64,000 nucleotides of DNA from an uncultured Chloroflexia bacterium (GCA_963826505.1 CAWGXG010000001.1:354406-418405); one strand, 5' to 3'. Counted from the stretch's first letter, positions 175 to 64,000 are shown. The notes: generated by a model from the sequence alone, not told the origin. Made by a program: numbers and translations.

Positions 175-925
175 TCAGTTCTGAATACGGGACAAGCGCA
201 GGGCTCCCCGTTCCTGAGTCTGACGGCGGGCCGCGGCGACCAGTGTCGTCTGGCCGATCAACCCGTCGCTGATTTCGTAGACGTGCGGTACGTCCTTCGC
301 GAGTTCGCGGTCGTGGGTCACAATGATGACCGTGGTTCCCCGCTCGCTAAGCTGTCGGAAGGCATCGAAGACGCGGCCGGCGCTCATGCGGTCCAGGTTG
401 CCGGTAGGTTCATCGGCGATGATCAGAGCCGGGTTATTGGCCAGGGCGCGCGCCAGGGCAACGCGCTGTTGCTGACCGCCGGACAGCATATCCGGCATCT
501 TATCAGCCTGATCGGCGATGCCGAAGTATTCCAGCAGTTTGAGCGCGCGTTGGGGGCGCTCGGCGGATTTCCACACATTGGCGAAATCCATCGGGGCGAT
601 GACGTTGGCCGCCACGGACAAGGTCGGCAGCAGTTGGAAGAACTGGAACACAATGCCCACATTCCGGGCGCGCCATTTGGTCAATCGGCGGGCATTGACT
701 TCTCGAGATTTCGAGATCGTCAATGGTGAGTGAGCCGCTGGTGGGCGTGTCGATCGCCGTGAGCATGTTGAGAAACGTGGTCTTGCCGCTGCCCGATGGG
801 CCAACCAGGGCGACGAAATCGCCTTTGCAGATATCCAGGTTGAGGCCGCGCAGCACGTTAAGCGGTCCGGCTGGGGTATTATACGTCTTGACAAGGTCGC
901 GGACGGTGACAAAAGGTGCTTCCAT
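175..925 (-). pseudogene. ABC transporter ATP-binding protein (MacB/LolD-like), interrupted by a 1-nt frameshift near 700
   Basis: The N-terminal frame carries Walker A GPSGSGKTT (ORF 503..925). The C-terminal frame carries Q-loop, signature LSGGQQQRVALARAL, Walker B IIADEPTGNLD and H-loop (ORF 175..1092). Total span is 751 nt (3n+1), consistent with a +1 insertion. Confidence 0.8.
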
Positions 926-1136
926 GTGCGTTTTCCTTTCCTCTGTGCCTGGTTTACAGGATAGGGGAAAGAGCGCGCGCGGTCATCAGGCAGATGGCTA
1001 GACTTCGTTATCACATGGCTTGGCCAGATGGCCAGGGTGGGGCAAACAGAACCGGACTGTCTGGCCAGGGCATGCAATCTTGACGCAATCACATCACAGA
1101 TTGCTTGACTCCGATCTGAGAGTATGTTACAAATAG

Positions 1137-1149
1137 TAAAACGTTTTCA
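1137..1149. promoter_or_regulatory. candidate LacI-family operator (perfect 10-bp palindrome AAAACGTTTT)
   Basis: TAAAACGTTTTCA resembles LacI/GalR/cre-type operators (TGNAAACGNTTNCA). It sits in the divergent region between the ABC ATPase gene and the lacI-like gene. Confidence 0.35.
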
Positions 1150-1255
1150 CATCCTGTGATCTGGGTTGTGCGCGATTGCTGCCTGATGAGATCGTTTGCG
1201 CGGGAACCCAAAACGATATACAGGTTGGTTTCTGCGAAAAAACGGAACTGATTTA

Positions 1256-1269
1256 TGAATACGTTTTCA
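1256..1269. promoter_or_regulatory. candidate LacI-family operator TGAATACGTTTTCA (13/14 palindromic)
   Basis: Near-perfect palindrome sharing ACGTTTTCA with the first site. It lies about 10 bp upstream of the LacI start codon, suggesting autoregulation. Confidence 0.4.
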
Positions 1270-3018: not shown

Positions 3019-4492
3019 ATGACCAATACACTATCCAATTACATTAACGGCACATGGCAAAAATCTGCGGCGGACAATTATCAACCCGTCGTCAACCCGG
3101 CTACCGGCGAAACGATCGCCGAAGTCCCGCTGTCGTCTCCATCCGTAGTCGATCAGGCGGCTGAAGCTGCCGTCGCGGCGGCGGATTCCTGGCGGCGCGT
3201 CCCGCCCGTTGAGCGCGTGCAATACCTGTTCAAGCTCAAAGGGCTGCTCGAAGAGAACATCGACGAGCTGTCGCGCGCGATCACCAACGAGAACGGCAAG
3301 ACGTTCGGCGAGGCCAAAGGCGAGATGCAGCGCGCTATCGAAAACGTGGAAGTCGCGTGCGGTATTCCGACCCTGATGCAGGGCACCATCTCCGAAGACA
3401 TCGCGTCGGGCATTGACGAGCTGATGATCCGCCAGCCGGTCGGCGTGGCGGCCATCATCGCGCCCTTCAATTTTCCCGGGATGATCCCGTTCTGGTTCCT
3501 GCCCTACGCAGTGGCGACCGGCAATACCGTGATCGTAAAACCGTCCGAACGCTGCCCGCTCACGATGCACATCGCGTTCGAGCTGCTGGAAGCGGCGGGC
3601 TTTCCGCCCGGCGTGGTCAACAGCGTCAACGGCGGGACCGGACTGCGTCAACGCGATCCTCGATCATCCGTCCATCAACGCCGTGAGCTTCGTGGGATCA
3701 ACCCCGGTGGCGCGCCACATCTACTCACGCGCCTCGGCCAGCGGCAAGCGCGTCCAGGCGCAGGGTGGGGCGAAGAACCCGATCGTCGTCCTGCCGGACG
3801 CCGATCTCGACATGACGACGCGCATCGTCGCCGACAGCGCCTTTGGCAACGCCGGACAGCGCTGCCTGGCCGCCTCGCTGGCGATCACCGTCGGCAGTGT
3901 GCGCCACGAATTCACGCAAGCTGTAGCCGATGCCGCGTCGCAGCGCGTCGTCGGATATGGGCTGGATGCAGGCGTCACGATGGGGCCGGTGATCACGCCT
4001 CAGAGCAAGGCACGCATCCAGGGTCTCATCCAGACCGGGCTGGACGAAGGGGCCAAAGCCCTGCTTGACGGGCGGGAGGCTACCATCAAGGGCTATGAGA
4101 AGGGTTACTTCATGCGCCCGACCATTCTTGAGGATGTGAAACCGGGCGGCACCATCGCGCGCACGGAGATTTTCGGGCCAGTGTTGGGCATGATGCACGT
4201 CGATACTATCGACGAAGCGATCGCCCTGGTGAATAGCGGTGAGTATGGCAACATGGCCTGCCTGTTCACGAACAGCGGCTCGGCGGCGCGCAAATTCCGT
4301 TACGAAGCCATGGCGGGCAATATCGGCATCAATATTGGCGTGGCGGCCCCGATGGCCTTCTTCCCGTTCAGCGGTTGGAAGTCGAGCTTCTTCGGCGTGC
4401 TGCACGGCCAGAGTCATCACGCGGTCGAGTTCTTCACGCAGACCAAAGTCGTCGTGGAGCGCTGGCCGAAAGAGTGGACGCGGCAGTTTTAG
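3019..4492 (+). pseudogene. mmsA: methylmalonate-semialdehyde dehydrogenase-like (CoA-acylating ALDH, MmsA/IolA-like) with 1-nt insertion near 3640
   Basis: N-terminal 3019..~3640 and C-terminal 3683..4492 are both ALDH. VNGGTG|LRQ reads [26 protein letters not shown] if one g is removed from accggactg. Catalytic Cys is present in AGQRCLA. Confidence 0.75.
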
Positions 4493-10295: not shown

Positions 10296-12014
10296 ATGGC
10301 ACCGCGTGGTCTGGCTAACCGGCTGACAGAATACGGCGACTCTGAGATGGCGCTGTATTTGCGGCGTTCGTTTGCCCGTTCGATGGGCTTCAGCTGTCAC
10401 GCCCTGGGCAAGCCGGTCGTCGGCATCGTGAATACCTTCAGCGAGCTGAACAACTGTCACCGTGGGCTGCGCGAGTTGGCCGAAGCCGTCAAGCGCGGCG
10501 TGTGGCAGGCCGGGGGTCTGCCGCTGGAATTCCCGGTGATCTCGCTGGGCGAAATGTTTCTCCATCCCACGAGCATGATGTATCGCAATCTGATGGCGAT
10601 GGACGTCGAAGCCATGCTGCGCGCCCAGCCGTTGGACGCGGTGGTGCTGTTGGGCGGCTGCGATAAGACGCTGCCCGCTCTGCTGATGGGAGCCGCCAGC
10701 GCGGGACTGCCCGCGATCGTGGTCGCCGCCGGGCCGATGCTGCCCGGCGATTACCAGGGGGAACGCGTCGGCGCGTGCACGGACTGTCGCCGTTTCTGGG
10801 CGCAGTACCGCCAGGGCACGATGGATGCCAGCACCATTCACCAGGTCGAGGGCGAGCTAGTCCCCACGGCTGGGACATGCGGTGTGATGGGCACGGCCAG
10901 CACCATGGCGTGCCTGGTCGAAGCCCTGGGCATGATGCTGCCCGGCGGGGCGAGTGTGCCCGCCGTTTACGCGGGCCGCCTGCGACACGGCGAGCTGAGC
11001 GGCTACCGGGCGGTCGAATTGGCGCACGAAAATCTGACGCCGGACCAGATCATGACGCCCGCCGCCTTCGATAATGCGCTGGTGGTCTTGCAGGCCATCG
11101 GCGGCTCGACCAACGCCATCATCCACCTGACGGCCCTGGCGGGGCGTCTCGGCCAGCGGCTCGACCTGGGGCGGCTGGATGCTTTCAGTGAGACGGTGCC
11201 GCTGCTGGTCGATCTCAAACCGTCCGGCCAGCATTACATGGCCGATTTCCACCGCGCGGGCGGAATGCCGGTCGTGCTGCAGGAACTCAAGCCGCACCTC
11301 CAGCCCGACGTCTGCACCGTGTCTGGCCTGATGCTCGGCGAAGTGATGGATCCGGCATACCAATACCCGGATTGGCAGGATGTGATCCGGCCCGCCGCGA
11401 ATCCGTTCCAACCGCGCGGCTCGCTGGTGGTGCTCAAGGGCAGCCTGTGCCCGGATGGGGCCGTGCTCAAACGCTCGGCGGCCAGCCCGGACCTGCTCAA
11501 AACGACCGGGCGGGCGGTAGTCTTCACCTCGCTGCAGGATCTCGCGGATCGCATCGACGCGCCCGATCTCGACGTGACTCCGCAGGATATTCTCGTCCTG
11601 CAAAACGCGGGGCCAATCGGCGCACCGGGCATGCCGGAAGCGGGCTGCCTGCCGATCCCCAAGAAACTGGCGGGCGTGCGCGACATGGTCCGCATTTCGG
11701 ACGCGCGTATGAGCGGCACGGCGTTTGGCACGGTGGTGCTGCATGTATCGCCCGAGGCCGCCGTCCAGGGACCATTGGGATTGGTGCGCGATGGCGATTC
11801 GATCACGCTGGATGTAGAACACCGCTCGCTCGATCTGCTGGTGACGGAGAGCGAGCTAGCGAGGCGGCGGGCAGATCATTCGCCCAGCCCTGCGCGGTTC
11901 ACGCGGGGTTATGAGCGGCTGTACGTCCAACACGTGCAGCAAGCCCATCTGGGCGCGGATTTTGACTTTTTGCAGCACGACGCGCTGTTGGCCAGCGCGG
12001 ACGAGGCACCTTGA
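10296..12014 (+). CDS. IlvD/EDD-family dehydratase (sugar-acid or dihydroxy-acid dehydratase type)
   Basis: 572 aa with CDKTLP, cluster-ligating Cys pattern and the TCGVMGTASTM region, typical of arabonate/xylonate/6-phosphogluconate dehydratases. Confidence 0.85.
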   Translation: MAPRGLANRLTEYGDSEMALYLRRSFARSMGFSCHALGKPVVGIVNTFSELNNCHRGLRELAEAVKRGVWQAGGLPLEFPVISLGEMFLHPTSMMYRNLMAMDVEAMLRAQPLDAVVLLGGCDKTLPALLMGAASAGLPAIVVAAGPMLPGDYQGERVGACTDCRRFWAQYRQGTMDASTIHQVEGELVPTAGTCGVMGTASTMACLVEALGMMLPGGASVPAVYAGRLRHGELSGYRAVELAHENLTPDQIMTPAAFDNALVVLQAIGGSTNAIIHLTALAGRLGQRLDLGRLDAFSETVPLLVDLKPSGQHYMADFHRAGGMPVVLQELKPHLQPDVCTVSGLMLGEVMDPAYQYPDWQDVIRPAANPFQPRGSLVVLKGSLCPDGAVLKRSAASPDLLKTTGRAVVFTSLQDLADRIDAPDLDVTPQDILVLQNAGPIGAPGMPEAGCLPIPKKLAGVRDMVRISDARMSGTAFGTVVLHVSPEAAVQGPLGLVRDGDSITLDVEHRSLDLLVTESELARRRADHSPSPARFTRGYERLYVQHVQQAHLGADFDFLQHDALLASADEAP

Positions 12015-12291
12015 AAACAGTCTGAACGCGGCACGGGCTGATGCCTGTATAACGCGCTTAGTGACGTCGCAGCACGCGCATAGTCGATGATCGGATTGGC
12101 TGGTGTTTCTCTGGCAGGCTGCCCGGCAACGGGTGACCGGCCCTGGTAGAAGGAGGTGGCATTAGCGACAGCCGGTAGCAGGCTCTAGTCGTGCGAGGAC
12201 CGTACACCGGCAGCCCAAAAGGTGTTACAAACCCGTTCAGGCAGGTAGAGCTACCCAAACGAATGATAAGTTCCAGGAGAGAAAAAACATA

Positions 12292-13551
12292 ATGTCCAAG
12301 AAACGCCTCATTCATTTAGTGATTTTGACCGCGATCTTGTTGTCGTTCAATGCTATGGCCGTCAGCGCGCAGAGCGGGATCAGCATCGTACACTACTTCA
12401 GCGATGCTCTCGGCCAGCAGACTATGGGCGAAATCCTCGATGGTTTCAACGCCGCCAATCCGGATTATAAAGTCGAGGACAACTCCGCCGGGCACGAGGA
12501 CTTCAAGACGCAAATCCTGGTGACGATTGCCGGTGATAATCCTCCGGACATCTTCTCCTACTGGGCCGGTGCCCGCACGCAGTTCATCGTGGATGCTGAT
12601 CGCCTGATGCCGCTGGATGATTTCTGGGCCGCGAACAATCTGGACGACTTCATTCCGGCTGGCGTCAAGTCTGCCGCCGTCTACAACGACCATATCTACA
12701 ACATCCCGATGAACGTCCACATCATCGGCTTCTTCTATAACCCCAAAGTCATGGAAGCGGCTGGAATCATGGCCATGCCCACCACCTGGGACGACTTCAT
12801 CGCCATGTGCGAAACCCTGAAGGCGTCCGGCGTGACCCCGATCGCGCTCGGCTCGAGCAATCGCTGGCCCGCGCAATACTGGTTTGACTACACCATCTCG
12901 CGCACCGCTGGCCCCGAATATCGCCAGAAACTGATGGCCGGTGAAGCCAAATACACCGATCCCGAAGTTGAGACCGCGATGGGCTACTGGAAACAACTGA
13001 CGGACGCCGGGTACTTTGTCCCGGATGCCAATGCCTATGACTGGGACGTGGCCGCCAACATGGTCGCGAACGGCGATGCCGCTATGACCCTGATGGGCAC
13101 CTGGATCACCGGTCTGTGGAACGGCAACGGCCTGGAGCCGATCACCGATTACGACTTCTTCCCGTTCCCGGTCATCAACCCTGATGTGCCGATGGTCGCG
13201 CATGGCTCGATCGACGGCTGGGTTGTCCCGCAGAGCGCCAAGAATCCTGCGGGCGCGGAAGCCCTGTTGAACTGGTTCCTCAGCCCTGAGATTCAGCAGA
13301 AGTGGGCGTTGGGCCAGGGTGCACTCGCGGCCTCGACCGCCATCGACACGTCGGCTTACTCGCCGGTGATGGCGAAGGCAGCGCAGCACCTGTCTGAGGT
13401 CGAGTTCCTGAGCGGCTATGATCTTTCGACCACGCCGCCCATGGCCGAAGGTGGCCTGGACATGTTCGCCATGTTCATGAACGATCCTTCTGGCTTCAAG
13501 GATTACCTGCAGGAAACGCAGGCGATTGCTGACGACGTGTTCGGAAGCTAA
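12292..13551 (+). CDS. ABC transporter substrate-binding protein (family-1 sugar SBP), secreted
   Basis: Signal peptide MSKKRLIHLVILTAILLSFNAMAVSAQS and strong SD AGGAGAGAAAAAAC. 419 aa. Confidence 0.85.
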   Translation: MSKKRLIHLVILTAILLSFNAMAVSAQSGISIVHYFSDALGQQTMGEILDGFNAANPDYKVEDNSAGHEDFKTQILVTIAGDNPPDIFSYWAGARTQFIVDADRLMPLDDFWAANNLDDFIPAGVKSAAVYNDHIYNIPMNVHIIGFFYNPKVMEAAGIMAMPTTWDDFIAMCETLKASGVTPIALGSSNRWPAQYWFDYTISRTAGPEYRQKLMAGEAKYTDPEVETAMGYWKQLTDAGYFVPDANAYDWDVAANMVANGDAAMTLMGTWITGLWNGNGLEPITDYDFFPFPVINPDVPMVAHGSIDGWVVPQSAKNPAGAEALLNWFLSPEIQQKWALGQGALAASTAIDTSAYSPVMAKAAQHLSEVEFLSGYDLSTTPPMAEGGLDMFAMFMNDPSGFKDYLQETQAIADDVFGS

Positions 13552-13574
13552 CGTTTGATCGTATACTGAGCGTA

Positions 13575-13610
13575 CCTGGGGCAGGGCTTGTCCTGCCCCA
13601 GGTACTTTTG
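13575..13610 (+). terminator. intra-operon hairpin/attenuator after SBP gene (12-bp perfect stem ACCTGGGGCAGG/CCTGCCCCAGGT + ACTTTT)
   Basis: Seen directly in the sequence. Attenuators after SBP genes commonly elevate SBP transcript relative to the permease genes. Confidence 0.45.
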
Positions 13611-13664
13611 AGTTATGCCGTTAACACGCTCTGGACCTCTCTGGGCGGCTGGGAGACATAATAG

Positions 13665-14546
13665 GTGACCCGAGAACGACGGATGTGGGCTTTTCTATTC
13701 CTGGTAGTGCCGGTCAGTATCTATCTGATCGTGGTGATCTACCCGCTGCTGTCCTCGTTTTACTTCAGCTTCACCGATTGGAATGGATTTAGCGCACATT
13801 ACAAATTTGTAGGTTTAGATAACTTTAAGCGGATGAAGACTGATCGCTTGTTTCGCAACGCCATCGAAAATACGGTTGTGTGGACGATCGCCGCGGTGGT
13901 TCTGCCGACGGTGGGTGGGCTGCTGCTCGCGCTGGCACTCCACGAACGGGGCATTTTGTCCCGACTATACAAGTCGCTGTTTTACCTCCCGATCTGCCTG
14001 TCGCTGGTGGTGATCGGCCAGGTGTGGATTTGGATTTACCAACCCGGGTTCGGGCTGTTGAACGTCTTTCTGGATAACGCCGGGTTGAGCAGTCTGTCGC
14101 GCGCCTGGTTGGCCAAACCCGATACCGCCCTGGGGTCGGTCATCGCGGCCTGGACATGGCAGCAAATCGCGCTGGCGATGGTCATCTTTCTGGCCGGGCT
14201 CACGGCTGTGCCCAAGGAACTGACCGAGGCCGCCGAGATTGACGGGGCGGGATATTGGCGGACGGTCCGTCACATCGTGATTCCGCTGCTGCGCCCGGCG
14301 TCGATCGTCGTGATCGCGCTGGCGGTGATTAACTCGCTCAAAAGCTTCGACATTCTTTACATGATGACCAAAGGTGGCCCGTTCCACTCGTCCGACAATC
14401 TGGCCATGATGATGTACAACGAATCATTTCAGAAATACCGCATGGGCTACGGCAGCGCGGTCGCGGTGGTGCTGTTCATAATCACGCTGGTGGTCATCAC
14501 GTTCTATTTCCGTCAACAACGTGGGCTGGAGCAACTCTATGACTGA
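13665..14546 (+). CDS. ABC sugar transporter permease (MalF/UgpA-like)
   Basis: Six TM helices and EAA-like loop AAEIDGAGYWRT. GTG start. Confidence 0.8.
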   Translation: MTRERRMWAFLFLVVPVSIYLIVVIYPLLSSFYFSFTDWNGFSAHYKFVGLDNFKRMKTDRLFRNAIENTVVWTIAAVVLPTVGGLLLALALHERGILSRLYKSLFYLPICLSLVVIGQVWIWIYQPGFGLLNVFLDNAGLSSLSRAWLAKPDTALGSVIAAWTWQQIALAMVIFLAGLTAVPKELTEAAEIDGAGYWRTVRHIVIPLLRPASIVVIALAVINSLKSFDILYMMTKGGPFHSSDNLAMMMYNESFQKYRMGYGSAVAVVLFIITLVVITFYFRQQRGLEQLYD

Positions 14547-15426
14547 AGCAACACGCGCCGCAGCGCTGCACGCGCCTTCGAACGCGGCTCGCGTACCGGC
14601 TTCGCGTCGGATACGTACGGTGGTCTTGTATGTCTTGCTCACGCTGCTGTTGGTGATCTATTCACTGCCCAGCCTGGGCGTTGTACTGACGTCACTGAAA
14701 TCCAACGCGGAGATCGCACGCGAGGGCGTGTGGAATCTGCCGGACAACGTGAGTTTCCAGAACTTCCACGATGCCTGGGTAGAAGGCAAGGCAGGGAAGT
14801 ACATCGTCAACTCGCTCAAGGTCACGATCCCGGCCACGCTCGTGTCGATCATGCTCGGCATTCTGACCGGCTATACCCTGGCCAAGCTGGCCTTTCGCGG
14901 CAGCGAGTACCTGTTTATTTTCCTGGTGGCCGGGCTGTTCATCCCGCCGCAAGTCGTGATGATCCCGCTGTTCCGCCTGTTCAACAGTTGGGGGCTGTAC
15001 GACACGCTGTGGCCGATGATTATCGTGCATATTGGGTTCGGAATCCCGATCTGCACGCTGGTGATGAAGAACTTTTTCGCCACGATCCCGACCGCGATCC
15101 GCGAGGCGGCCATCATCGACGGCGCGAACGAGCTGATGGTCCTGGTGCGGGTGATGGTCCCGCTGTCCCTGCCGTCGATGGCGGTCCTGGCGACGCTTCA
15201 GTTCACGTGGATTTGGAACGATTTCCTGTGGCCGGTCATCTTCACCCGCTCGGACTCGGCGCGGACGATCATGTTCGGGCTGGCGTCATTGCGCGGGCAG
15301 TACAGCGTGGCTTATGGCACGCAGTCGGCGATGGCGGTGTTTGCCAGCATCCCGACGCTGCTCATTTTCATCTTCTTCCAGAAGTATTTCATCCGCGGCC
15401 TGACGCTTGGCTCGGTGAAGGGCTAA
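14539..15426 (+). CDS. ABC sugar transporter permease (MalG/UgpE-like)
   Basis: 8-bp overlap with the preceding permease gene. EAA loop AAIIDGANELMVLVRVMVP. Confidence 0.8.
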   Translation: MTEATRAAALHAPSNAARVPASRRIRTVVLYVLLTLLLVIYSLPSLGVVLTSLKSNAEIAREGVWNLPDNVSFQNFHDAWVEGKAGKYIVNSLKVTIPATLVSIMLGILTGYTLAKLAFRGSEYLFIFLVAGLFIPPQVVMIPLFRLFNSWGLYDTLWPMIIVHIGFGIPICTLVMKNFFATIPTAIREAAIIDGANELMVLVRVMVPLSLPSMAVLATLQFTWIWNDFLWPVIFTRSDSARTIMFGLASLRGQYSVAYGTQSAMAVFASIPTLLIFIFFQKYFIRGLTLGSVKG

Positions 15427-15848: not shown

Positions 15849-15901
15849 AAGCGCTCACATCATCCTTCGAACTGTCCCAAGTTAACGATTTCCATCAACT
15901 C

Positions 15902-20263: not shown

Positions 20264-20267
20264 GATG

Positions 20268-48732: not shown

Positions 48733-48771
48733 ACTCCAGGGGCGGTCGAATCGCAGATCACCGGGATCAAA

Positions 48772-52810: not shown

Positions 52811-53982
52811 TCACACGGACACCGCCGCCGAAATATCATAGCCGACTACCGCACTGAGGCTGCGATCGCGCACGCGTTCCGGGGTCATTTTGAGGGCCAC
52901 ATTGCGGGCCAAACAAAGAATCGGGTTATGAAGCTGGCCCGCGGCGCCGATCCTTCGCGACTGCCGCACAATGGATTGTGCCCGAGGCAGACGGATCGCT
53001 TGATAGTGCGCGAAGGCCGCCTCAATGTCCGCCACGGACGCAAGATAATAGGCTAGCGCGTAAGCGTCCTCGATGGCCTGACACGCGCCCTGACCCAAAT
53101 TGGGAGTCATGGCGTGCGCGGCATCGCCCAACATTACCACGCAGCCCTTGTACCACTGCGCGATGGGCTCAACGTCGTAGATATCATTGTGCAGAATGTC
53201 TGAGGCGGGCGTTTCGTCGATGAGCGTGGGATCGGTGTGTGCCAACGTGCAAACAACGTTTGGAGATGGGCTTTGGTGGCTTCTGGCGTCGGCAAGTGCT
53301 GATCTTTGGGCGTGTTTTCAGTCCCAAACCAGTAGACGCGTCCCTGGGAAAGCGGCGCCAACCCAAAACGGGAGCCGCGCCCCCAGCTTTCGCCCCAACC
53401 GTGTGCCACGCGCGCATGGTCGAAGGGCAGAACGGCCCGGTAGGCCGTATACCCGGAGTACACTGGGCGAACCTGTGGACTGATTTGCTTCCGCACTGTG
53501 GAATGGATGCCGTCGGCGGCAATCAACACATCGCCTTGCGCGGTCGTGCCGTTGGCGAAATGCGCGATGATTCCGTCCGGGGTCTCTTCGTAGTGGGTGA
53601 AATCCGATCCCAATTGAATCGGTGTGTGGATCTGAGCGCACAGTAGCTTGTGCAGTTCGGCGCGATGCACGATCGTCGCGTCGATGACCGAATGCTGGTT
53701 CGGATCGTTCATTTTTGCAGCGGTCAGGATAGCGCCGGTCGAGCTTCGAACCGAGCCTTGTCCCTCGTAGGTGCCCAGGTTGAGCAGGGCGTCACGCATT
53801 CCCAGTGCTTTGAACACCGCGATAGCGTTCGCCCACAAGGTAATGCCAGCTCCAACCGCCTGCACCTCGGCTGTACGTTCGTAGATTTCGACTTCGATGG
53901 CACGCTGCTCCAAAGCGATGGCAGCGGTTAGCCCGCCGATCCCGGCCCCGATAACAATTGCTTTCATGATGAGTGTCTCCAA
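52811..53982 (-). pseudogene. FAD-dependent monooxygenase (UbiH/salicylate-hydroxylase type), 1-nt deletion near 53243
   Basis: N-terminus KAIVIGAGIGGLTAAI. The C-terminal frame carries GDAAHAMTPNLGQGACQAIEDA. Span is 3n+2. Confidence 0.75.
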
Positions 53983-54581
53983 AGGCTAACGTCGTCGCCG
54001 CGACTGATAATGGCGCGGCTTAGATGTCGTGTGCTGCCGACCGAGGCAGTCGCCGGTGCACGGCTGGGCGACTCGACGGCAAGCCTTGACCGCAGTGCCG
54101 TGCCGCTACGAGATCCCTGGATGCGGACCCATGCTCTAGACAAGATGCCAGACTCTGGCGGGGCGAATGTGTGCGGAATCACACGCGTGCTTGTTGGGCG
54201 TTTTTGCGTGGCCTGCAGGACGGGGTCGACGAATGAGCGCCGTTCTACGCTGTAATGCTTAACTTTCGCCAACTGGTGAAGCAACATTCTCTTCGCTCGG
54301 AGCAACTCTCTTGAACAAAAACTGTTTTCCACCGGAAAGAATACAGATGGCTGTATTTCATAAAGATCACAATTATCATAATAATAGTATAAATTGTCAA
54401 ATTTCGAAACGATGTGACGATCTCGGCCACGCGGGGAATAGGGGGTCCTCAAACGGCCCGCCAGAGCGGTAAACAACGATGTTCTCAACAGGCAAATACA
54501 GCAGACGCGCGGGTGCCGAAGAACGCATGCACTCGCGCGTCTGGCGCGCTATTCATATATTTGTCTATTGCTTGGCGGTAC

Positions 54582-56560
54582 CTAGCTCAAGAAATCATCC
54601 GCCAGATCGAGCACGGTCCGCAGCGGCAGCGCGCCCAGCACCGGGTTATCCACGATGCGTTGCAGCGTCTCGCGCTGGGCGGCGTCCAGACCGCTTTCGC
54701 GCTCCAGGAGCGTCTCCGCCAGTTCGCCCAGGCCCACATTCTGCTTGACGGCGTCCGCATAGTCCTGCGCGACGAGGCGCAGCAGCGCTTGGATGCTGCC
54801 CCGGCCTTGGTCGCTCTTGCCACCACCGAGCGCGTCCGCAAACTGATCGACCACGCGGCGCGCGCCAGTGGGCAGCGCATCGTACACGCCCTGCGTCGCT
54901 TGCGCCGCCGTGACGAGCTGCAACACGCGGTGCGCGGTGTTGGTGTCGCCGTACAAATTCATCTTCATGCCCTTGATCGCTTCGCCCAGGGCTTCGGCGC
55001 GCGCCACTTCCACCGCTTTCTGTACGTCCGCGTTCAGGCGCGCCAGCTCCAGGTCCTTGCCGACGGCGTCATGCGAGGCCAGAGCTTCGGCGCGGGCTTT
55101 CTCGCCTTCGGCTTCGGCCAGCAGCTTCTGACGGGTCGCTTCGGTCTCCTGCTGCAAGACTTTGACCCGCTCCAACGCGACCTGGACATCCGCCAGACCT
55201 GGCGGCGCTGGCGCGCTCGCGCTCGCCTAACGCGGCCATGCGCGCGCGTATCGAGATCGGCTTCGGCGCGCGTGCGGGCTGCCTCGGACTCCGAGATCGC
55301 GATCTTGCGATCCGATTCGGCTATTTCCTGGCGGCGCAGTGATTCGATCTCGACTTCGCCGCGCGTTTCGATCACACGCCGGTCCACGTCCAGGCGGGCA
55401 TTCAGCAGATCGATCTCGGCTTCGCGCTCAGCAGCGGCTTTCTCGGTGACCAGCAGCGCCTCTTGCAGCGCGCGTTCCCGCTCGCGGTCCGCTTCGATCT
55501 GCGCCAGCGTGGCGTTCAGCTTCTTCACCGTCGCTTCGAGGATGTGCGTTTCGCGTTCCTGTTCGGCCAGCGCCAACGCTTCTTCGCGCAGCACTTTTTC
55601 CAGCTCAATCGCTTTCTGCATCTGCTCGCGCAGCAGCACGAGCATGCGCTCGTTTTCCACGCGCTCTTCTTCCAGCGAGCGATCAGCCAGCAGCTTGGCG
55701 CGTTCGGCTTCTTCGCGGCGTTGTTCCTGCGCGATGCGCGCGGCGGTTTCCTCTTCGGCGCGCACCACGGCGATATTGCGCGTGCGCTGCGCGCGTTCCA
55801 CGTCGATTTCTTCCTGGATGCTCATTTGCTGGCGTTCGGCATCGGCATCGAGCCGGGTACGTTCCAGCGTCCCCAGGCGCTCCAGGCGGGTTTTCTCGGT
55901 GAGCGCTTCTTCGATCACGGCGGCGTTTGCCCGCGCCACCTGCGCGCCGAGGATATCGTCCGTCGAAAACTGGCCTTGCAGCGTGGGGCGCAAGACCAGG
56001 ATGCTGACGCTTTCCAGCACCAGCCCGTTTTCGGCCAGATCGTCGCGCAGACGTGCCTGCACCTGTTGGATGAACTCCATGCGGCGTTCGAGCAGACCGC
56101 GCTGCTCGAAGGTGACGGCCACGTCGCGCACGGCACCGTTAATTTTGGGTTCGACCAACCGGCGCACGCTGGACTCGCTGACCATGTCGCCGCCGATCGT
56201 CCGCGCGGCGATGCTGATATGGTCGGCGTCGTGCGCGACTTTCACAAAAAAGCGTGCTTCAAAATCAACATATTGGGGATCGCGCGTGATGAGGGCGTTT
56301 TCTTCCAGGTGGCGCACTTCGATCGACATCGTTTCGAGCGACACCCACTTGATGCGGTGCAGAAAGCCGAAGACCCACGCCGCGCCGTTCATGACCACCG
56401 TCGGCGTGGAGGCCCGCGCGCCGCGCAGCCCGCCCGTCCGCACAAAGGCTGTCGTCGCTGTCGTCTTCACGTAGGAGCGTGACAGCAGCCGGATGATCAG
56501 CCAGCCCACGCCTGCCACTATCAATACAAGTACGATCAGACTCGCCAAATTCTCAAGCAT
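54582..56560 (-). pseudogene. flotillin / SPFH (band-7) domain protein, two 1-nt insertions in a GCGCGC-rich stretch (~55205 and ~55250)
   Basis: N-terminal TM plus SPFH domain, then a long EA-rich coiled coil. Three frames are needed to read through 55200-55260. GAGGTG SD. Confidence 0.75.
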
Positions 56561-56595: not shown

Positions 56596-56910
56596 TCACT
56601 GCCTGCTGCGCAGCGACGATCGCAAATAAGAAATCTCGTCCGCCAGTTCGCGGACCATCGCCCGCAGTTCGCCGACCTCGTCGCCGGGCGCGACTTTCGC
56701 CGGGCGCGACCCGCCGCTGCCCAGCGCGCCTTCGCCGGCGCTCAGAAATTCGTCCACCCACCGATCGATCTCAGCGCGATCGACGTTCAGGCGCAGCGCC
56801 ACGACCGAGGGCGACGTTTCGCCCCGCAAGATACTCAGCACGGTCTCGGCTTTGTCGCCGGGCCGGACGCGCCTCCGTGCGACGCGGCTCGGGCTGCGCC
56901 GCCGGCGCAC
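56596..56910 (-). CDS. small HTH protein (IS3-OrfA-like fold, no transposase partner); start uncertain, overlaps extended tail of hyuB
   Basis: ETVLSILRGETSPSVVALRLNVDRAEIDRWVDEFLSAGEGAL followed by the leucine-zipper-like segment ELRAMVRELADEISYLRS. Confidence 0.3.
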   Translation of the reverse strand: MRRRRSPSRVARRRVRPGDKAETVLSILRGETSPSVVALRLNVDRAEIDRWVDEFLSAGEGALGSGGSRPAKVAPGDEVGELRAMVRELADEISYLRSSLRSRQ

Positions 56911-58645
56911 CGACTGCGCCCCGGGTCCGCACGCTGCGCGCCGCGCCGCCGCGCGCATCCACCACGATGCCATATTCTTTTTCGGCCATGTCCGGCGTCA
57001 CGTAGCCGTTTTGCACGTCGCTCAGCACTTCTTCTTCCGGGCGCAGGTGCGGATCGCCGTAGCCGCCGCCGGTACCCGTCACCAGCCGGGCCACTTCGCC
57101 GCGCTTGAGCGGATATTGCGCCGTCTTGCCGAAAACCTTGTGCGAGCCGTCGGCGTGGATCATCTCCATGTAATTGCGCGAGCCCTGTTGTCCGCCCTTC
57201 AGCCCCCAGGGCAGGTATTTGAAGCGCCCAAAGGTCCCGGTCACCAGCGCTTCCTCGGACGTCATGCGGTAGTCGCGCACCAGCCCGCGCCCACCCCGGA
57301 AACGCCCCGCGCCGCCCTCGGCGATATTGAGCGAAAATTGGTCGACCATGACGCCGTAGCGCGTCTCGCCGACTTCGACCGGGACCACGTAGGTTTCGCC
57401 GTCGCCGATGCAGACCAGCGCGTTCTCGCCGTCGCGGTCGACGCCCGCGCCCCAGCCGCCCGCCTGCGGCTCGACCAGGATGAACAGCTCGCCGGTGTCG
57501 GGGTGGATGCCCGATACGACTGTGCCGCACACGCTGAGGAAATGGCCCATCGTCAGCCGATCCGGCAGCACGGGAGCCAATGCCTGCCACACCAGATCGG
57601 ACGCGAAGATCATCGTCTCCCAATAGGTCGAGACGGGCGCGGGACGGTGCGCGGTGATGATGGTGCGCTCCGGGCAGATGATTTCCAGCGGGCGGAAACA
57701 GCCGTCGTTGGCCGGGATGGCCGGATCGGTCAGCGCCTTGAAGACGACGCGCACGGCGGATTCCAGGCCGGTGCGCCCGGCGTTGATCGGTCCCGGCACC
57801 TGATCGTGCGAGCCGGTGAAATCGCAGATGAATTTCTCCCCGGTGACGGTGACCTTGACGCGCATCTCGAACGGCCCGTTGCCGACCCCGTCATCATCGA
57901 TGTAATCGACCGCCTCGTAGACGCCTTTGGGAATTTTGGCGAGCTGCTGGCGCGTCATCTCCTCGCCGTAATCCATCAGGGCTTCGATGCTGTACAGCAT
58001 GGTATCCAGGCCGTAGCGGTCGCACAGATCGACGAAGCGCCGTTCGGCGATGCGCAGCGAAGCCGCTTGCGCCTGCATATCGCCAATGCTCATATCCGGC
58101 GTGCGCACGTTGACGCGGATCAGGTCGATCAGCGCCTGGTTGACGACACCCTTGTCGAAGAGCTTCATGCACGGGAATTGCAGCCCTTCCTGCCAGACGT
58201 CGGTCGAGTTGGTCGTCCAGCTTCCCGCGGCCATCCCGCCGACCTCGGTCCAGTGGGCTTTGTTGGCGGCAAAGGCGACCAACTGCCCCTGGTAAAAGAT
58301 CGGCATGACCAGCGACACGTCCGACAGGTGCGTGCCGCCGCCCGTATACGGGTCGTTGGTGATGATGATGTCGTTGGGCGCGATGTTCTCGCGACCAAAC
58401 TTATCGAGCACGCTCTTGGCGGCGAAGGTCAGCGTACCCAGAAAACCGGCCACGCCGTTGCCCTGTGTGATCAGGTCGCCGTTGGCGTCGAGCAAGCCGG
58501 ACGCGTAGTCCAGGACCTCGTAAATGATCGTGCTCATGCTGGTGCGCTGCATGGCGATGAACATCTCGTCCCCAATCGCGACCAGCGATTCCTTGATGAT
58601 TTCCAGCGTAAAGGGGTCTACCTGCTCGTGTCCATTGTTTGCCAT
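56771..58645 (-). CDS. hyuB: hydantoinase B/oxoprolinase-family protein (HyuB); ~50-aa low-complexity C-terminal extension relative to paralogue (possible stop loss)
   Basis: Conserved HyuB blocks throughout. AAGGAG SD before ATG 58645. No hyuA partner in the window. Confidence 0.75.
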   Translation of the reverse strand: MANNGHEQVDPFTLEIIKESLVAIGDEMFIAMQRTSMSTIIYEVLDYASGLLDANGDLITQGNGVAGFLGTLTFAAKSVLDKFGRENIAPNDIIITNDPYTGGGTHLSDVSLVMPIFYQGQLVAFAANKAHWTEVGGMAAGSWTTNSTDVWQEGLQFPCMKLFDKGVVNQALIDLIRVNVRTPDMSIGDMQAQAASLRIAERRFVDLCDRYGLDTMLYSIEALMDYGEEMTRQQLAKIPKGVYEAVDYIDDDGVGNGPFEMRVKVTVTGEKFICDFTGSHDQVPGPINAGRTGLESAVRVVFKALTDPAIPANDGCFRPLEIICPERTIITAHRPAPVSTYWETMIFASDLVWQALAPVLPDRLTMGHFLSVCGTVVSGIHPDTGELFILVEPQAGGWGAGVDRDGENALVCIGDGETYVVPVEVGETRYGVMVDQFSLNIAEGGAGRFRGGRGLVRDYRMTSEEALVTGTFGRFKYLPWGLKGGQQGSRNYMEMIHADGSHKVFGKTAQYPLKRGEVARLVTGTGGGYGDPHLRPEEEVLSDVQNGYVTPDMAEKEYGIVVDARGGAARSVRTRGAVGAPAAQPEPRRTEARPARRQSRDRAEYLAGRNVALGRGAAPERRSR

Positions 58646-58663: not shown

Positions 58664-60100
58664 TTAGCTGCCAGGGTGCGCCCGTGTGAGCGCCCCGGTG
58701 TGTGCATTCATAACCGCCCCGTAATCGCGCGCGGCCATCTCGGCTGTGATCAGACCGTCGCGCAGATCGCGGCTGATCTCGTCCAGCGGGCGAGAGTGCG
58801 GATCGCCATAGCCGCCGCCCGTGCCGGTGACCATACGCGCCACGTCGCCGCGCGCCAGCCGGTATTGGGCCACTTTGCCAAAGGTGTGCGAAGTTCCGTC
58901 GGCGTGGAGCATCACCATCTGGTTGGGCGATCCGGATTGGCCGCCCGCCATGCCCCACGGCACAAATTTCGAGCGTCCGAACGTCCCGGTGACGTAGGCT
59001 TCGTCCGCCGTGATGCGATAATCGCGCAGCAGGCCGCGCCCGCCCCGGTAGCGTCCCGCGCCGCCATCACAGATGTTCAGCGCGAACTGATCGACTCGCA
59101 CGCCGTAGCGCGTCTCGCAAATTTCGACCGGAATAGTATACGTTTCGCCGTCGCCCATCGACGACCAGCGCGTTCTCACCGTCCCGATCGACGCCTGCGC
59201 CCCAGCCGCCCGCCTGCGGCTCCACCAGGATGAACAGCTCGCCCGTGTCGGGATGGATGCCCGAAATCACCGTGCCGCACACGCTCAGAAAATGGCCCAT
59301 CGTCAGACGGTCGGGCAGCACCGGGGCCAGCGCCCGCCATACCAGATCGGCGGCGAAATCCATCGACTCCCAGTAGATCGACGTCGGCGCGGGACGCGCC
59401 GCCGTGACCAGCGTGCCGTCCGGACAGATCACCTCCAGCGGGCGGAAACAGCCCTCGTTGGCCGGGATGGCCGGGTCGGTCAGCGCTTTGAAAATGACGC
59501 GCACCGCCGCTTCCAGCCCGGAACGCCCGGAGTTGATCGGGCCAGGGACCTGGGGGTGCGAGCCGGTGAAATCGCAGCGAAAGCGGTCCTCCGTGACGGT
59601 CACCTCGCACGCACATCTCGAACGGCCCGTTGCCCAGCCCATCATCGTCCACGTAATCCACCGCCTCGATACACGCCGTTCGGGATGCGAGCCAACTGCT
59701 GGCGGGTCATCTTCTCGCCATAGTCCATCAGGGCGCCGATGCCGTCCAACACGCCGTCCACCCCGTAGCGCTCGCACAACTCGACGAAACGCCGCTCGGC
59801 CATGCGCAGCGACGCCGCCTGCGCCATCATGTCGCCGATGCTCATGTCCGGCGTGCGCACGTTGGCGCGGATCAGGTCGACCAGCTTCGGATCCAGCTCC
59901 CCACGCTCGTAGAGCTTGATGCACGGGAATTGCATGCCCTTCCTGCCACACGTCGCGCGAGTTCGTCGTCCAACTGCCCGCCGATCCGCCGCCGACCTCG
60001 GTCCAATGCGCCTTGTTGGCGGCAAACGCGACCAGCTGGTCCGCGTAAAAGAACGGCTTGACCAGCGTCACGTCCGACAGGTGCGTCCCGCCGCCGGAGC
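58664..60100 (-). pseudogene. decayed tandem duplicate of hyuB (N-terminally truncated, several frameshifts)
   Basis: About 85% aa identity to the adjacent copy across three ORF fragments (58664..59179, 59067..60140, 59642..60025). Homology stops abruptly near 60100. Confidence 0.7.
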
Positions 60101-61131: not shown

Positions 61132-61132
61132 T

Positions 61133-63577
61133 TCACCCTTTCACTTTCGTGCCAGCCGGGTCGTAAGCCGCCTTGAGACTGGCTTGCACCGGCACACGAT
61201 CCCCCGCGATATCGAGTTCGAAATTCGCGTCGAGCAGATCGGGGCCAGCGCCGTTGGTCACCACAAAGCCGAGCGCAACAATGGCGTTGAGTGTGTGGCC
61301 GTAAGCTGCGGACGTCACCTCGCCAACGGGTGCGCCATTGCGCAGGATCAGTTCTCCGCCATGCGCCAGCGGGGTATCGGGGGTCAAGCCGACGAAACTG
61401 AGTAGCCGTTTTGCGAGCGGCTTTGTTTTCGCGGCCACGAGCGCCTCGCGTCCGATGAAATCACCCTTGTCGAACTTGACCGCAAAGCCAAGACCCGCCT
61501 CGAATGGCGTAATATCGGGCGTGAGTTCACGACCCCAGGCGCGATAGCCTTTTTCCAGCCGCAACGACTCGATGGCGTAATAGCCGGCATCGCGCACAGC
61601 GAGGTCGTGGCCGGCTTGCATGATGGCGTCGTAGACGCCGGTCGCGAGTTCGACCGGCACGAACAATTCCCAACCCAGTTCGCCGACATAGGTGCGCCGC
61701 GCGGCCAGAACATTGGCGGGCCCAATGCCGGTTTCACGCACGGCCCCGAACGGAAATGCGTCGTTGTCGAGCGGCGCCTTGGTCAGCCGCTCGAGCAACT
61801 CGCGCGAGCGCGGCCCCATGACGGCAAGTACGGCATAGGCCGAGGTGACGTCGGTGAGATAGGCGTGAGCATCCAGCGGAAGATTGCGGGTGATCCAGTC
61901 GGCGTCGCGCGTCGCCTGTGCCGTTCCGGTGACGATGAGGAAGCGGTCATGCGCAATGCGCGAAATCGTCACGTCGCTCTCGCAGGTGCCGCGATGATTG
62001 AGCATCCCGGTGTAGACGCTGGCGCCGACCGGCACATTCATGTCATTGGCGCACAGATGTTGCAGCACGCTTTGAGCGTCGCGGCCCTGCAGCAGCAATT
62101 TCGCAAATGACGTCAGATCGAACAGCGCGACGGCCTCGCGCGTAGCCTGGTGCTCGGCGGCGGCGAACGGAAACCAGTTCTGCCGTCCGAGCGAATAGTC
62201 GATCTTGGCGTCGGCTTTCGACGGCGCAAAGAAGTTCGGCCGCTCCCAGCCCATCTTGGAGCCAAACACCGCATGCTTGTCGGCCAGCCGATCATAGAGC
62301 GGCGAGCGGCGAAATGGCCGCACCGAGGCAAATTCGCGGTTCGGCCATGGCATCATGTAATGCAGGCCCAGCACTTCCTTGACGCGGTCGTGCAGCAGCG
62401 CGTCATTGTCGTGGAAGCGCGCGAAGCGGCGAATATCGACCGGCCACAAATCGAGCGTAGGCTCACCTTCGACGATCCATTCGGCCAGCGCCCGGCCGGC
62501 ACCACCGCCGGAAGCAATGCCGATCGAATTAAACCCCGCGCCAACAAAGAAGTTTTTCAGTTCCGGCGCCTCGCCCATGATGAAGTTGTTGTCAGGCGTG
62601 AAGCTTTCCGGCCCGTTCATGAAAGTCTTGATCTCGGCCGTCTCCAGCGCCGGTAGCCGGACGAGCGCGTTCTGCATCAGGATTTCGAATTGGTCCCAGT
62701 CGTCCGGCAGTATGCCGAATTCGAAATTCTCAGGGATGCCGTCCATCGCCCAGGGCTTGGCCTCTGGCTCGAAGCCGCCCATCAGCAGGCCGCCGACTTC
62801 TTCCTTGATGTAGATGTAGCCGTCCGGATCGCGCAGGACCGGCAAGTCCGGATGCACGCCCTCGATGCGGCCAGCGACGATATACATATGCTCGGCCGAA
62901 TGCAGCGGCACGGAAACGCCGCACATGCGGCCAACTTGTTTGGCCCATTGTCCGGCGCAGTTGACGACGATGTCGGCTTTGATATCGCCTTTGGCGGTCG
63001 CAACACCGGTCACCGCGCCGTCGCGGGTATGGATTGCCGTCACCCGCGTCTGCTCAAAGATTTTAGCGCCGCCCATACGGGCGCCTTTCGCCAGCGCCTG
63101 CGTGACATCGGTTGGGTTGACCTTGCCGTCGAGCGGCAGCCAAAGCGCACCGACCAGATCGTCGGTACGCATGATCGGATAGCGCTCCGCCGCCTCTTTG
63201 ATCGAAATTAATTCGCAGGCGACGCCTTGCGCGGTGGCGGTCGACGCGATGCGCTTGAACAACACCAGCCGTTCAGCTGTGCGGGCGACCAGAACCGAGC
63301 CGCATTGCTTCCATCCGGTCGCTAGACCGGTTTCAGCCTCAAGCCGCGAATAGAGCTCTGCGGAATATTGAACAAGACGCGTCATGTTCTGATGCGCGCG
63401 CAACTGGCCTACCAGACCCGCGGCATGCCAGGTCGTGCCGCAGGAAAGCCGACCTTGCTCCAGCAAGACGACATCGCGCCAGCCGTGCTTCGTGAGGTGA
63501 TAGGCGACCGAACAGCCCATGACGCCGCCGCCGATGATGACGACCCGCGCGGAATCCGGAATGTCCGATTTGGTCAT
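61133..63577 (-). CDS. dimethylglycine/sarcosine dehydrogenase-family protein (FAD oxidoreductase + GcvT-like folate-binding domain); alternative start 63601
   Basis: VVIIGGGVMGCSVAYHL FAD motif. C-terminal aminomethyltransferase-like domain. Roughly 815 aa. Confidence 0.85.
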   Translation of the reverse strand: MTKSDIPDSARVVIIGGGVMGCSVAYHLTKHGWRDVVLLEQGRLSCGTTWHAAGLVGQLRAHQNMTRLVQYSAELYSRLEAETGLATGWKQCGSVLVARTAERLVLFKRIASTATAQGVACELISIKEAAERYPIMRTDDLVGALWLPLDGKVNPTDVTQALAKGARMGGAKIFEQTRVTAIHTRDGAVTGVATAKGDIKADIVVNCAGQWAKQVGRMCGVSVPLHSAEHMYIVAGRIEGVHPDLPVLRDPDGYIYIKEEVGGLLMGGFEPEAKPWAMDGIPENFEFGILPDDWDQFEILMQNALVRLPALETAEIKTFMNGPESFTPDNNFIMGEAPELKNFFVGAGFNSIGIASGGGAGRALAEWIVEGEPTLDLWPVDIRRFARFHDNDALLHDRVKEVLGLHYMMPWPNREFASVRPFRRSPLYDRLADKHAVFGSKMGWERPNFFAPSKADAKIDYSLGRQNWFPFAAAEHQATREAVALFDLTSFAKLLLQGRDAQSVLQHLCANDMNVPVGASVYTGMLNHRGTCESDVTISRIAHDRFLIVTGTAQATRDADWITRNLPLDAHAYLTDVTSAYAVLAVMGPRSRELLERLTKAPLDNDAFPFGAVRETGIGPANVLAARRTYVGELGWELFVPVELATGVYDAIMQAGHDLAVRDAGYYAIESLRLEKGYRAWGRELTPDITPFEAGLGFAVKFDKGDFIGREALVAAKTKPLAKRLLSFVGLTPDTPLAHGGELILRNGAPVGEVTSAAYGHTLNAIVALGFVVTNGAGPDLLDANFELDIAGDRVPVQASLKAAYDPAGTKVKG

Positions 63578-63610
63578 CACGCGCCTATCCAGCAGCAACA
63601 ACCCGAGCTT

Positions 63611-64000
63611 TTAGCGCGCGAACGACAAAAAGGCGCTAACGACTTTTACATATACATCTCTTTTAAACGGAACGACAAGTTGCGGAACCACAACGAGCCG
63701 TTCCCAGCGCCACATATCAAATTCCGGTTGCTGGCCATCCCGCATAGCGGTCACATCAATTACATGATCCGCGCCGCTAAACCGAAAGGCGAACCATTTT
63801 TGCTTTTGGCCGCGGAACTTGTTGAGCCGGTGAACTGCCTGGCCAGAATACGGAGGGAAATCGTAGGTCATCCAATTTGTTTCAGCGAGAAATTCCGCTT
63901 TCGATACCCCGGTCTCTTCGAAGAGTCACGCCGCGCCGCCTTGAGGGGTTCCTCGCCCTTATCGATGCCACCTTGTGGCATCTGCCATTCGAACCCTGGC
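63611..64000 (-). pseudogene. rppH: RNA pyrophosphohydrolase (NUDIX, RppH-like), 5' end outside window, 1-nt deletion near 63925
   Basis: C-terminus GQKQKWF..EFDMWRW..FKRDVY matches RppH. Upstream frame reads WQMPQGGIDKGEEPLKAARR with the NUDIX box RELFEETGV restored by adding one base. Confidence 0.65.

Follow-up and report, generated by a model that had tools for sequence, protein, structure and literature searches.

Single-base frame breaks in conserved genes of an uncultured Chloroflexia contig are most probably consensus errors

Conserved genes in a 64,000-nucleotide stretch of a metagenome-assembled contig from an uncultured Chloroflexia bacterium (GCA_963826505.1, CAWGXG010000001.1:354406-418405; hereafter, the window) were found to be interrupted by 17 one-base indels, comprising 15 extra and 2 missing bases, and by one premature stop codon. 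The contig, 418 kb long, belongs to an Aggregatilineaceae-like member of the Anaerolineae (Chloroflexi); an alphaproteobacterial source, at which initial BLAST hits hinted, was rejected. One-base coding indels are far more numerous in the window than chance expects, and, judged from the sequence, the frame breaks are very probably errors in the deposited consensus, lying in patchily supported stretches of the contig. We favor consensus errors because extra bases exceed missing bases by 15 to 2, the changes are 1 nt in size wherever measured, the repaired genes show no sign of decay, relatives are intact, and the breaks cluster independently of gene identity. The original prediction had reached the same preference, and its 12 listed coordinates all proved to be real frame breaks by Pfam domain splits, tblastn, or DNA alignment; its count of at least 14 indels was sound but slightly understated the total. 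Sites near 56869 (full-length hyuB) and at 59163, ~59612, ~59672, and ~59936 (partial hyuB) are added here, together with a TGA codon at 48730-48732.

When intact homologues were used as tblastn queries, the query residues remained contiguous while the reading frame changed at the sites. The first three sites lie within 1-3.7 kb. An ABC-transporter ATPase gene (minus strand) carries an extra base at 697-703, where the frame changes from -1 to -2 and the Pfam ABC_tran match is split into profile positions 1-53 and 48-136; the repaired segment crosses the junction without a gap. In a LacI-family regulator (plus strand), an extra base at 1331-1334 falls in the helix-turn-helix (HTH) at about codon 18 of 349; DNA alignment placed it at 1333 (GGC[G]CAAC versus GGC-... 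in relatives L002 and L091), and the Pfam HTH match lacks its first 9 profile positions. An MmsA-type aldehyde dehydrogenase (methylmalonate-semialdehyde dehydrogenase, ALDH; plus strand) has an extra base at 3635-3640, aligned to 3637 (GGCGGG[A]CCGGA versus GGCGGG-CCGGA in L001, L002, and L091), which splits the Aldedh match into 1-193 and 192-461.

The second group, at 26.7-31 kb, affects a caa3-type cytochrome oxidase operon on the plus strand, and each of its five sites carries one extra base. Subunit II (COX2, a cytochrome c fusion) is shifted at 26786-26792 (frame 2 to 3 by tblastn), where the repaired 145-aa segment aligned without gaps to L013, and again in its cytochrome c domain at 26985-26992 (frame 3 to 1 by tblastn), where the repaired alignment was likewise gapless. 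Subunit I (COX1, a I+III fusion) is shifted at 28185-28190, with tblastn query residues 1-303 in frame 1 and 303-420 in frame 2 (junction MWGGQ/LRLKTP), and at 28535-28541, where an extra G moves the frame from 2 to 3 by tblastn and the G run at 28538-28541 reads TTCGGGGTGGGG in place of the expected GGG; the COX1 Pfam match accordingly falls into pieces (1-304, 301-415, and the remainder). A separate subunit III gene (COX3) is shifted at 30896-30903 (frame 2 to 3 by tblastn), and 70 repaired residues aligned without gaps to four homologues. The stop codon is found in a Tricorn_N/PD40-like gene (510 aa, 47776-49314, plus strand), in which an in-frame TGA at 48730-48732 replaces the TGG (Trp) of the L092 orthologue. 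This result, from translation and codon comparison, overturned the earlier statement that no stop codons accompany the indels. The TGA could be either a real mutation or a substitution error with the same cause as the indels.

The third group, at 53.2-64 kb, lies on the minus strand. A FAD-dependent monooxygenase lacks one base at 53225-53246 (frame -2 to -1), and its FAD_binding_3 match is split into 3-235 and 279-349; tblastn with P0276 aligned query residues 3-334 and then 337-463, leaving 5 nt for 2 residues near 53245. A flotillin/SPFH gene has extra bases at 55240-55250 (first shift, frame -1 to -2 by tblastn) and at 55199-55201 (second shift, frame -2 to -3), and alignment to L092 placed them at 55247 (GATAC[G]CGCGCGC versus GACAC-CGCGCG) and 55200 (GCCGCC[A]GGTCTGG versus GCCGCC-GGTCTGG). 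Full-length hyuB (hydantoinase B/oxoprolinase) has an extra base at 56869-56895, in the linker before a C-terminal HTH-like extension; tblastn query residues 17-593 were in frame -1 and 597-679 in frame -2, and an extra C lies at 56869 relative to L092. The second, partial hyuB copy, said earlier to carry several further shifts, has exactly four, all +1. These lie at 59159-59166 (frame -3 to -1; GCTGGT[C]GTCGATG versus GTTGGT-GTCGATG in L092, open there, with the extra base at 59163), at 59605-59615 (~59612; frame -2 to -3 in a three-frame translation compared with copy 1), at 59668-59678 (~59672; frame -1 to -2; NGVY/EAVDY versus KGVYEAVDY in copy 1), and at 59930-59942 (~59936; frame -3 to -1; VWQEG/MQFPC versus VWQEGLQFPC). 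Finally, an RppH-like hydrolase that continues past the window end lacks one base in its Nudix box (AARR-E-LFEETGV) at 63924-63928; the two frames read KAARRD.. and ..LFEETGV, and with one base inserted after 63926 the sequence reads AARRELFEETGV. Both deletions that had been listed earlier (~53245 and 63926) were thus borne out.

Several features that resemble further lesions were set aside. Sulf_transp matches over two ORFs (22493-23631) reflect a normal two-gene arrangement, cytochrome b and a multihaem cytochrome at ~17160 are two separate genes, and a weak HTH_29 "transposase" match at 56599-56997 is the HyuB C-terminal extension kept in relatives rather than an insertion sequence (IS) element. 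The second hyuB copy itself, which lacks the first ~108 codons, shares 79.6% identity with copy 1 and has a net gain of 4 nt relative to it. That identity, together with its presence in L092 with an open frame across the covered region, ruled out an assembly duplication artefact. The 5'-truncated copy is a real conserved feature, and error is assigned only to its four frameshifts.

Comparison with relatives supported errors in the window. The closest relative was a short-read Aggregatilineaceae assembly (L091/L092), with orthologues at 86-90% nucleotide identity and dS of ~0.45-0.65. Across ~19 kb aligned to it (79-90% nucleotide identity), coding sequence contained no one-base indels other than six extra bases of the window (1333, 3637, 55200, 55247, 56869, and 59163), each exactly 1 nt in alignments with L091, L092, L001, and L002. 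Orthologues were all intact in these four and in every relative examined, and distant homologues were also in a single frame. Moreover, deletion or insertion of a single base at every repaired site restored an open frame that was gap-free against homologues, with no residue lost. Where a full orthologue was available, repaired and orthologue lengths were 349/349 (LacI), 490/490 (ALDH, 94% identical to P0123 without gaps), 682/683 (full-length hyuB), and 657/658 aa, and the repaired genes had no internal stop; for COX2, COX3, and the ABC ATPase, the comparison covered segments, which crossed the junctions without residue loss. Truncated products in a collection of 15 billion proteins occurred only on the single source contig, as did the 318-aa truncated Tricorn-like product. 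A junction-spanning concatenated query returned mostly ABC ATPase matches, along with the truncated flotillin product of the source itself (P0277), and a metagenome scan with COX1 found relatives at no more than 71% identity. A same-strain Logan contig (L090), from an independent read-set assembly, matched 3145 of 3146 positions at 11797-14942 and contained an intact gene; this span contains no indel site. P0338, looked up as an exact protein, was traced to an archaeal contig with no relation to the window.

The composition and placement of the indels were then considered. Most had been described as +1 insertions, and 15 of 17 are. This ratio departs from 50:50 (P = 0.0012) and from the insertion fraction of 0.43 among leaf-nodule Burkholderia pseudogenes, where deletions outnumber insertions (396:300) and indel sizes are broad (PMC6054270; P = 1.6e-4). 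All 17 lie in the three stretches, amounting to 18.8 kb (~0.9/kb), with none in the other 45.2 kb (spacing-variance P = 0.0007). COX2, COX1, and flotillin are each hit twice and hyuB copy 2 four times, all uncompensated, and catalytic cores of conserved genes are affected (COX1 twice, the Nudix box, the LacI HTH). Such repeated uncompensated hits would require a long period of neutral evolution, yet the window contains a single nonsense codon, which lies outside the genes struck more than once. In this sequence of 61% G+C, no indel site lies within 5 nt of any of the 111 homopolymers of at least 5 bases. The earlier remark that some sites fall in short G/C runs held for one site only, 28538 (G4), the only one of 17 with a run of at least 4 in or adjoining it. 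No k-mer within 6 nt on either side of the sites was enriched after multiple testing (the best, ACG, 11 observed versus 6.1 expected, uncorrected P = 0.015). An association with homopolymers was ruled out by the run survey and this test; a methylation motif (GANTC near 26791, 28541, 30903, and 63925; GTATCGA near 26991 and 55250) was also dropped, the k-mer test not being significant. A description of 3637, 55200, and 59163 as unambiguously non-homopolymer was withdrawn, since at dS of ~0.45-0.65 to the relative a synonymous change combined with a duplicated adjacent base can account for at least 3637 and 55200. All that is claimed on context is that the sites are free of long runs.

In decaying genes one would look for elevated dN/dS and for stop codons. 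Repaired genes had dN/dS of 0.045-0.075, equal to that of intact neighbours (0.046-0.076). Four genes had enough codons on both sides of a shift for comparison, and in three of them there was no rise downstream: LacI (0.075 downstream versus 0.068 upstream, the latter from merely 17 codons; 0.075 for the whole repaired gene), ALDH (0.048 versus 0.058), and hyuB copy 1 (0.047 versus 0.044). Flotillin was the exception (0.155 versus 0.032). A downstream value of 0.122 was obtained for hyuB copy 2, which is under purifying selection relative to its counterpart in the relative (dN/dS 0.09). These raised downstream values count against consensus error, and may reflect only a more variable C-terminus. 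Overall, the raised dN/dS and original-frame stops of relaxed selection after inactivation were not found in the repaired genes, by a measure that is insensitive to very recent events.

It is improbable that the breaks record genuine, very recent pseudogenisation, in which indels and a stop inactivate the caa3 oxidase operon, hyuB, flotillin, LacI, MmsA, and others, for example through decay after a lifestyle change. The deposited sequence does contain the breaks, which are grouped in few operons, a nonsense codon stands alongside them, the truncated hyuB copy speaks of rearrangement at its locus, and flotillin dN/dS is greater downstream of its shifts. As in the decaying Burkholderia genomes (PMC6054270), there are frameshifted ORFs, genes with more than one lesion, and a concentration of lesions in dispensable functions. 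Unlike them, the window shows insertions in excess, indels that are all 1 nt where measured, unchanged dN/dS, and one stop in 64 kb; natural lesions (deletions at least as frequent as insertions, mixed sizes, nonsense codons, IS elements or large deletions) have another spectrum. Natural single-base slippage concentrates in homopolymers, to which the indels show no link, and no IS elements or larger deletions were found in the window, nor any truncation among the disrupted genes. Pseudogenisation would also require that ~12 of ~55 genes be newly dead, each otherwise perfectly preserved, with up to four hits in a gene that has gained neither a stop nor elevated dN/dS, and that hyuB copy 2 be among them despite its low dN/dS and the open frame in the covered region of the relative.

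A recent burst of real, non-homopolymer +1 insertions in a natural Aggregatilineaceae lineage, caused perhaps by mutagenic end-joining or by a polymerase or repair defect, is highly improbable. Mutagenic end-joining repair adds single nucleotides at breaks. Such a burst would have knocked out the caa3 oxidase operon, the hyuB genes, flotillin, and several regulators almost simultaneously, and would constitute an unusual, insertion-biased gene inactivation in a free-living bacterium, a notable mutational phenomenon. An insertion-only, non-homopolymer phenomenon of this kind is unlikely.

There is very little probability in a mixed origin, with most indels errors and a minority of lesions real (the Tricorn-like TGA, the two deletions by short runs, and some in hyuB copy 2). 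The change of TGG to TGA is a substitution, a class apart from indels; hyuB copy 2, truncated at its start, may already be non-functional; and at 53245 and 63926 the missing base may have been lost from a run of 2-4 nt. Against this, copy 2 is under purifying selection and its frame is open in the relative, its four shifts share the +1 direction of the others, and the minority sites are distinguished by type alone.

Programmed frameshift sites have conserved sequence motifs and are themselves conserved across relatives, as in prfB. Conserved frameshifts are also known in Perkinsus mitochondrial cox genes (PMC9550989), and the window resembles these systems in its +1 direction, and in the cox genes among those affected; its downstream frames also keep full coding quality. 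Programmed frameshifting, which had been left open, is nonetheless effectively refuted, whether by +1 shifts of the ribosome or by transcriptional slippage, because the shifts are unconserved in orthologues at 86-90% nucleotide identity and in all distant homologues; moreover, many unrelated genes are involved, one of them with as many as four shifts, two sites move the frame in the other direction, no common slippery or stimulatory motif exists, and the long homopolymeric tract needed for transcriptional slippage is present at none of the sites.

Errors in the consensus therefore remain the favored explanation. Spurious pseudogenes are a well-documented product of low coverage and of hybrid assembly (Cooley & Wright 2024, PMC11017572). 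The window resembles such cases (PMC11017572, PMC12007338) in that single-base indels fragment conserved genes, repair restores length, and relatives are intact; in the literature, their density tracks local read support, and assemblies that are hybrid or of low coverage suffer most. We infer that the consensus of the three stretches rested on few or noisy reads, perhaps long-read sequence uncorrected by short reads. The other 45 kb is clean. On this explanation each extra or missing base splits an intact, functional gene into at least two reading frames. Uncorrected long-read indels, as proposed originally, are a plausible source, though the profile points to no particular platform. Insertion-rich and free of long homopolymers at 61% G+C, it is unlike the errors described for nanopore, whose residual errors are mostly homopolymer deletions (Kastor, PMC12007338), or for PacBio in high-GC genomes, where G/C homopolymer deletions are found (PMC8574707). 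A spectrum in which insertions dominate and 0 of 111 runs are affected, atypical for known long-read consensus, counts against consensus error, as does the one nonsense substitution, which real decay would give. The clustering in the cox and hyuB/flotillin operons also fits relaxed selection on dispensable genes.

The finding is a data-quality flag, not biology. Because the indels are confined to three stretches, the number of frameshifts per kb may serve to locate poorly supported parts of such contigs. Public protein collections already list fragmented products from the source contig. About one gene in five in the window would be miscalled as a pseudogene or split, and with the whole caa3-type cytochrome oxidase operon affected, metabolic reconstruction could wrongly deny this organism aerobic respiration.

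The original prediction placed 12 single-base frameshifts within otherwise conserved genes of the window. These frame breaks were confirmed: a codon-usage Viterbi frame map showed same-strand frame switches at those places. Single Pfam domains were divided over neighbouring frames, the profile coordinates of the parts abutting: ABC_tran was split into 1-53 and 48-136, Aldedh into 1-193 and 192-461, FAD_binding_3 into 3-235 and 279-349, and COX1 into 1-304, 301-415, and a remainder fused to COX3; COX2 was followed by Cytochrom_C, and the LacI HTH domain lacked its first 9 positions. Moreover, when intact homologues were used as tblastn queries, contiguous query residues moved from frame to frame (COX2, frames 2, 3, and 1; COX1, frames 1, 2, and 3; COX3, frames 2 and 3; ABC ATPase, frames -1 and -2; flotillin, frames -1, -2, and -3). 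DNA alignment to relatives revealed single extra bases at 1333, 3637, 55200, 55247, 56869, and 59163. Both predicted deletions were borne out by residue and nucleotide counts: at ~53245, 5 nucleotides stood in place of 2 expected residues, and at 63926 the Nudix box read AARR-LFEETGV, its E codon being one base short. The latter box belongs to an RppH-like Nudix hydrolase (GWQMPQGGIDKGEEP...RELFEETGV; 63611-64000, - strand) resembling the proteobacterial RppH/NudH type. A caa3-type cytochrome oxidase operon occupies 26135-31933 (+ strand) and comprises a subunit II-cytochrome c fusion, a subunit I-subunit III domain fusion, the CtaG assembly factor, a second, separate subunit III, and a subunit IV-cytochrome c domain fusion; the segment 31000-31240 is ORF-sized, with coding-like composition and no family match.

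In the final census, the window contained 15 one-base insertions, 2 one-base deletions, and 1 nonsense codon. Full-length hyuB (copy 1, hyuB1) also had a shift, at about 56869, in the linker that precedes its C-terminal extension; relatives have this extension in one frame with the rest of the gene. Several more shifts had been expected in the partial paralogue, hyuB copy 2; four were located (59163, ~59612, ~59672, and ~59936), and copy 2 exceeded copy 1 by a net 4 nt. The claim that no stop codons accompanied the indels did not hold, given that one in-frame TGA (48730-48732) was found in a Tricorn_N/PD40-like gene, at a codon that is TGG in the orthologue. Between 4.5 and 26.7 kb and between 31 and 53.2 kb, neither Pfam coverage nor alignment to relatives revealed any frameshift. 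A candidate respiratory gene cluster lies at 15432-24829 (- strand); it encodes a Rieske protein, a multihaem cytochrome c, cytochrome b, an NrfD-type membrane subunit, a 4Fe-4S subunit, and a TAT-exported molybdopterin oxidoreductase. A YeeE/YedE-type gene pair for sulphur transport comes next, then genes for a CcmH-like protein and an ArsR regulator. Two single extra bases relative to L091, a locus of the closest relative, are intergenic (1236 and 3002); that at 3002 directly follows the RpiB stop codon, with flanks nearly identical to L091. These may be further consensus errors not detectable by frame analysis, in which case the true error count would exceed 17.

The window has a G+C content of 61%, and plasmid comparison yielded no close match to it. 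Its repaired aldehyde dehydrogenase (one base removed or added per shift site to restore a single frame) had intact 491-aa homologues, at identities reaching 90%; those that carried a name came from Chloroflexi MAGs. In a genome scan, the nearest species representatives were Anaerolineae MAGs with 52-73% protein identity, and thus the source genome is not itself a representative. The closest relative retrieved was ENA ERZ24842098, a short-read SPAdes assembly (contigs 'Aggregatilineaceae_NODE_...', coverage about 6), whose loci L091 and L092 shared 86-90% nucleotide identity with the window across the main blocks of synteny; in one block the value was 79%. Synteny with this relative ends at 54581; just past this end, 668 nt (53923-54590) lack coding signal. 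In the protein collection, the truncated products of the window were found on a single contig only (NCBI and ENA), evidently the source. The same strain was present in an independent assembly of run ERR11571143, a contig of which (L090) matched window 11797-14942 at 3145/3146 positions with no indel; no indel site falls inside this span. The single difference, a synonymous C/T at 14483 (ABC permease codon ATC/ATT), looks like natural strain variation rather than error.

Each shift from frame n to n+1 acted as one added base rather than a 2-nt loss. Repaired COX2, over 145 aa, and repaired COX3, over 70 aa and against four homologues, aligned without a single gap, the alignment of the repaired ABC segment was gap-free at the junction, and repaired LacI, ALDH, hyuB1, and flotillin had the length of their orthologues and no internal stops. 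The dN/dS of repaired genes was 0.045-0.075, compared with 0.046-0.076 for intact neighbours. In LacI, ALDH, and hyuB1, constraint 3′ of the shift equalled that of the 5′ part (only 17 codons in LacI); flotillin was the exception, with dN/dS of 0.155 downstream and 0.032 upstream. A TrmO-like gene follows flotillin in the closest relative but not in the window. Because the repaired genes are constrained like their intact neighbours, the lesions overall are either extremely recent or not real.

As predicted, most indels were insertions (15:2; P = 0.0012 against 50:50). The bias also departed from real bacterial pseudogenes (P = 1.6e-4), whose insertion fraction is 0.43 (PMC6054270) and whose indels are of many sizes, whereas those measured in the window are one base each. 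Placement of some indels in short G/C runs held for 28538 (a G4 run) and for none of the other sites. None of the 111 homopolymers of at least 5 bases in the window was affected, and no k-mer was enriched near the sites. All 17 indels fell within three stretches (1-3.7, 26.7-31, and 53.2-64 kb) totalling 18.8 kb (0.9 per kb), with none in the remaining 45.2 kb (spacing-variance P = 0.0007).

The hyuB copy 2 (60098-58694, - strand) lies directly upstream of full hyuB, with which it shares 79.6% nucleotide identity; it is 5′-truncated, covers residues ~109-574 only, and lacks the N-terminal third. That this copy is a recent duplication or an assembly artefact was considered and rejected: the closest relative has the same arrangement (L092, 3-662), with the frame open up to the contig start, and dN/dS between window and relative was 0.09. 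Copy 2 is therefore a conserved partial gene, apparently under selection. The HyuB C-terminal extension (~85 aa; 56608-56868, - strand), also present in related Anaerolineae MAGs, weakly resembles helix-turn-helix domains (Pfam HTH_29/HTH_28, below threshold) and then continues into a coiled-coil-like tail; an extension of this kind is unusual in a hydantoinase B/oxoprolinase subunit.

Taken together, the 15:2 bias, the missing decay signature, the clustering, and the intact relative support the predicted consensus errors. That the genes are genuine recent pseudogenes is improbable: for hyuB copy 2 to gather four independent hits in 1.4 kb, and COX1, COX2, and flotillin two apiece, would need time, and the many substitutions, stops, and deletions then expected are absent. 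A mixture of errors and real lesions is less probable still. Programmed frameshifting, which the original prediction had left open, is excluded by the lack of a motif at the sites, several shifts within one gene, and non-conservation in the relative at 86-90% identity. Given that real decay lacks its expected marks and programmed frameshifting is excluded, a technical origin of the frame breaks, as an ordinary data-quality artefact, is supported. The consensus in particular stretches would have been built on few or noisy reads, possibly where a hybrid or low-coverage assembly of a metagenome contained segments derived from long reads that accurate reads left uncorrected. Hybrid assemblies in which low short-read coverage produced many spurious pseudogenes (PMC11017572) provide a documented parallel. 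In published work, nanopore residual errors are deletions in homopolymers (PMC12007338), and those of PacBio in GC-rich genomes are deletions in G/C homopolymers (PMC8574707); the spectrum of the window differs from both, which is a difficulty for the technical reading. The frame breaks are of low intrinsic interest, yet they are important to anyone annotating this genome.
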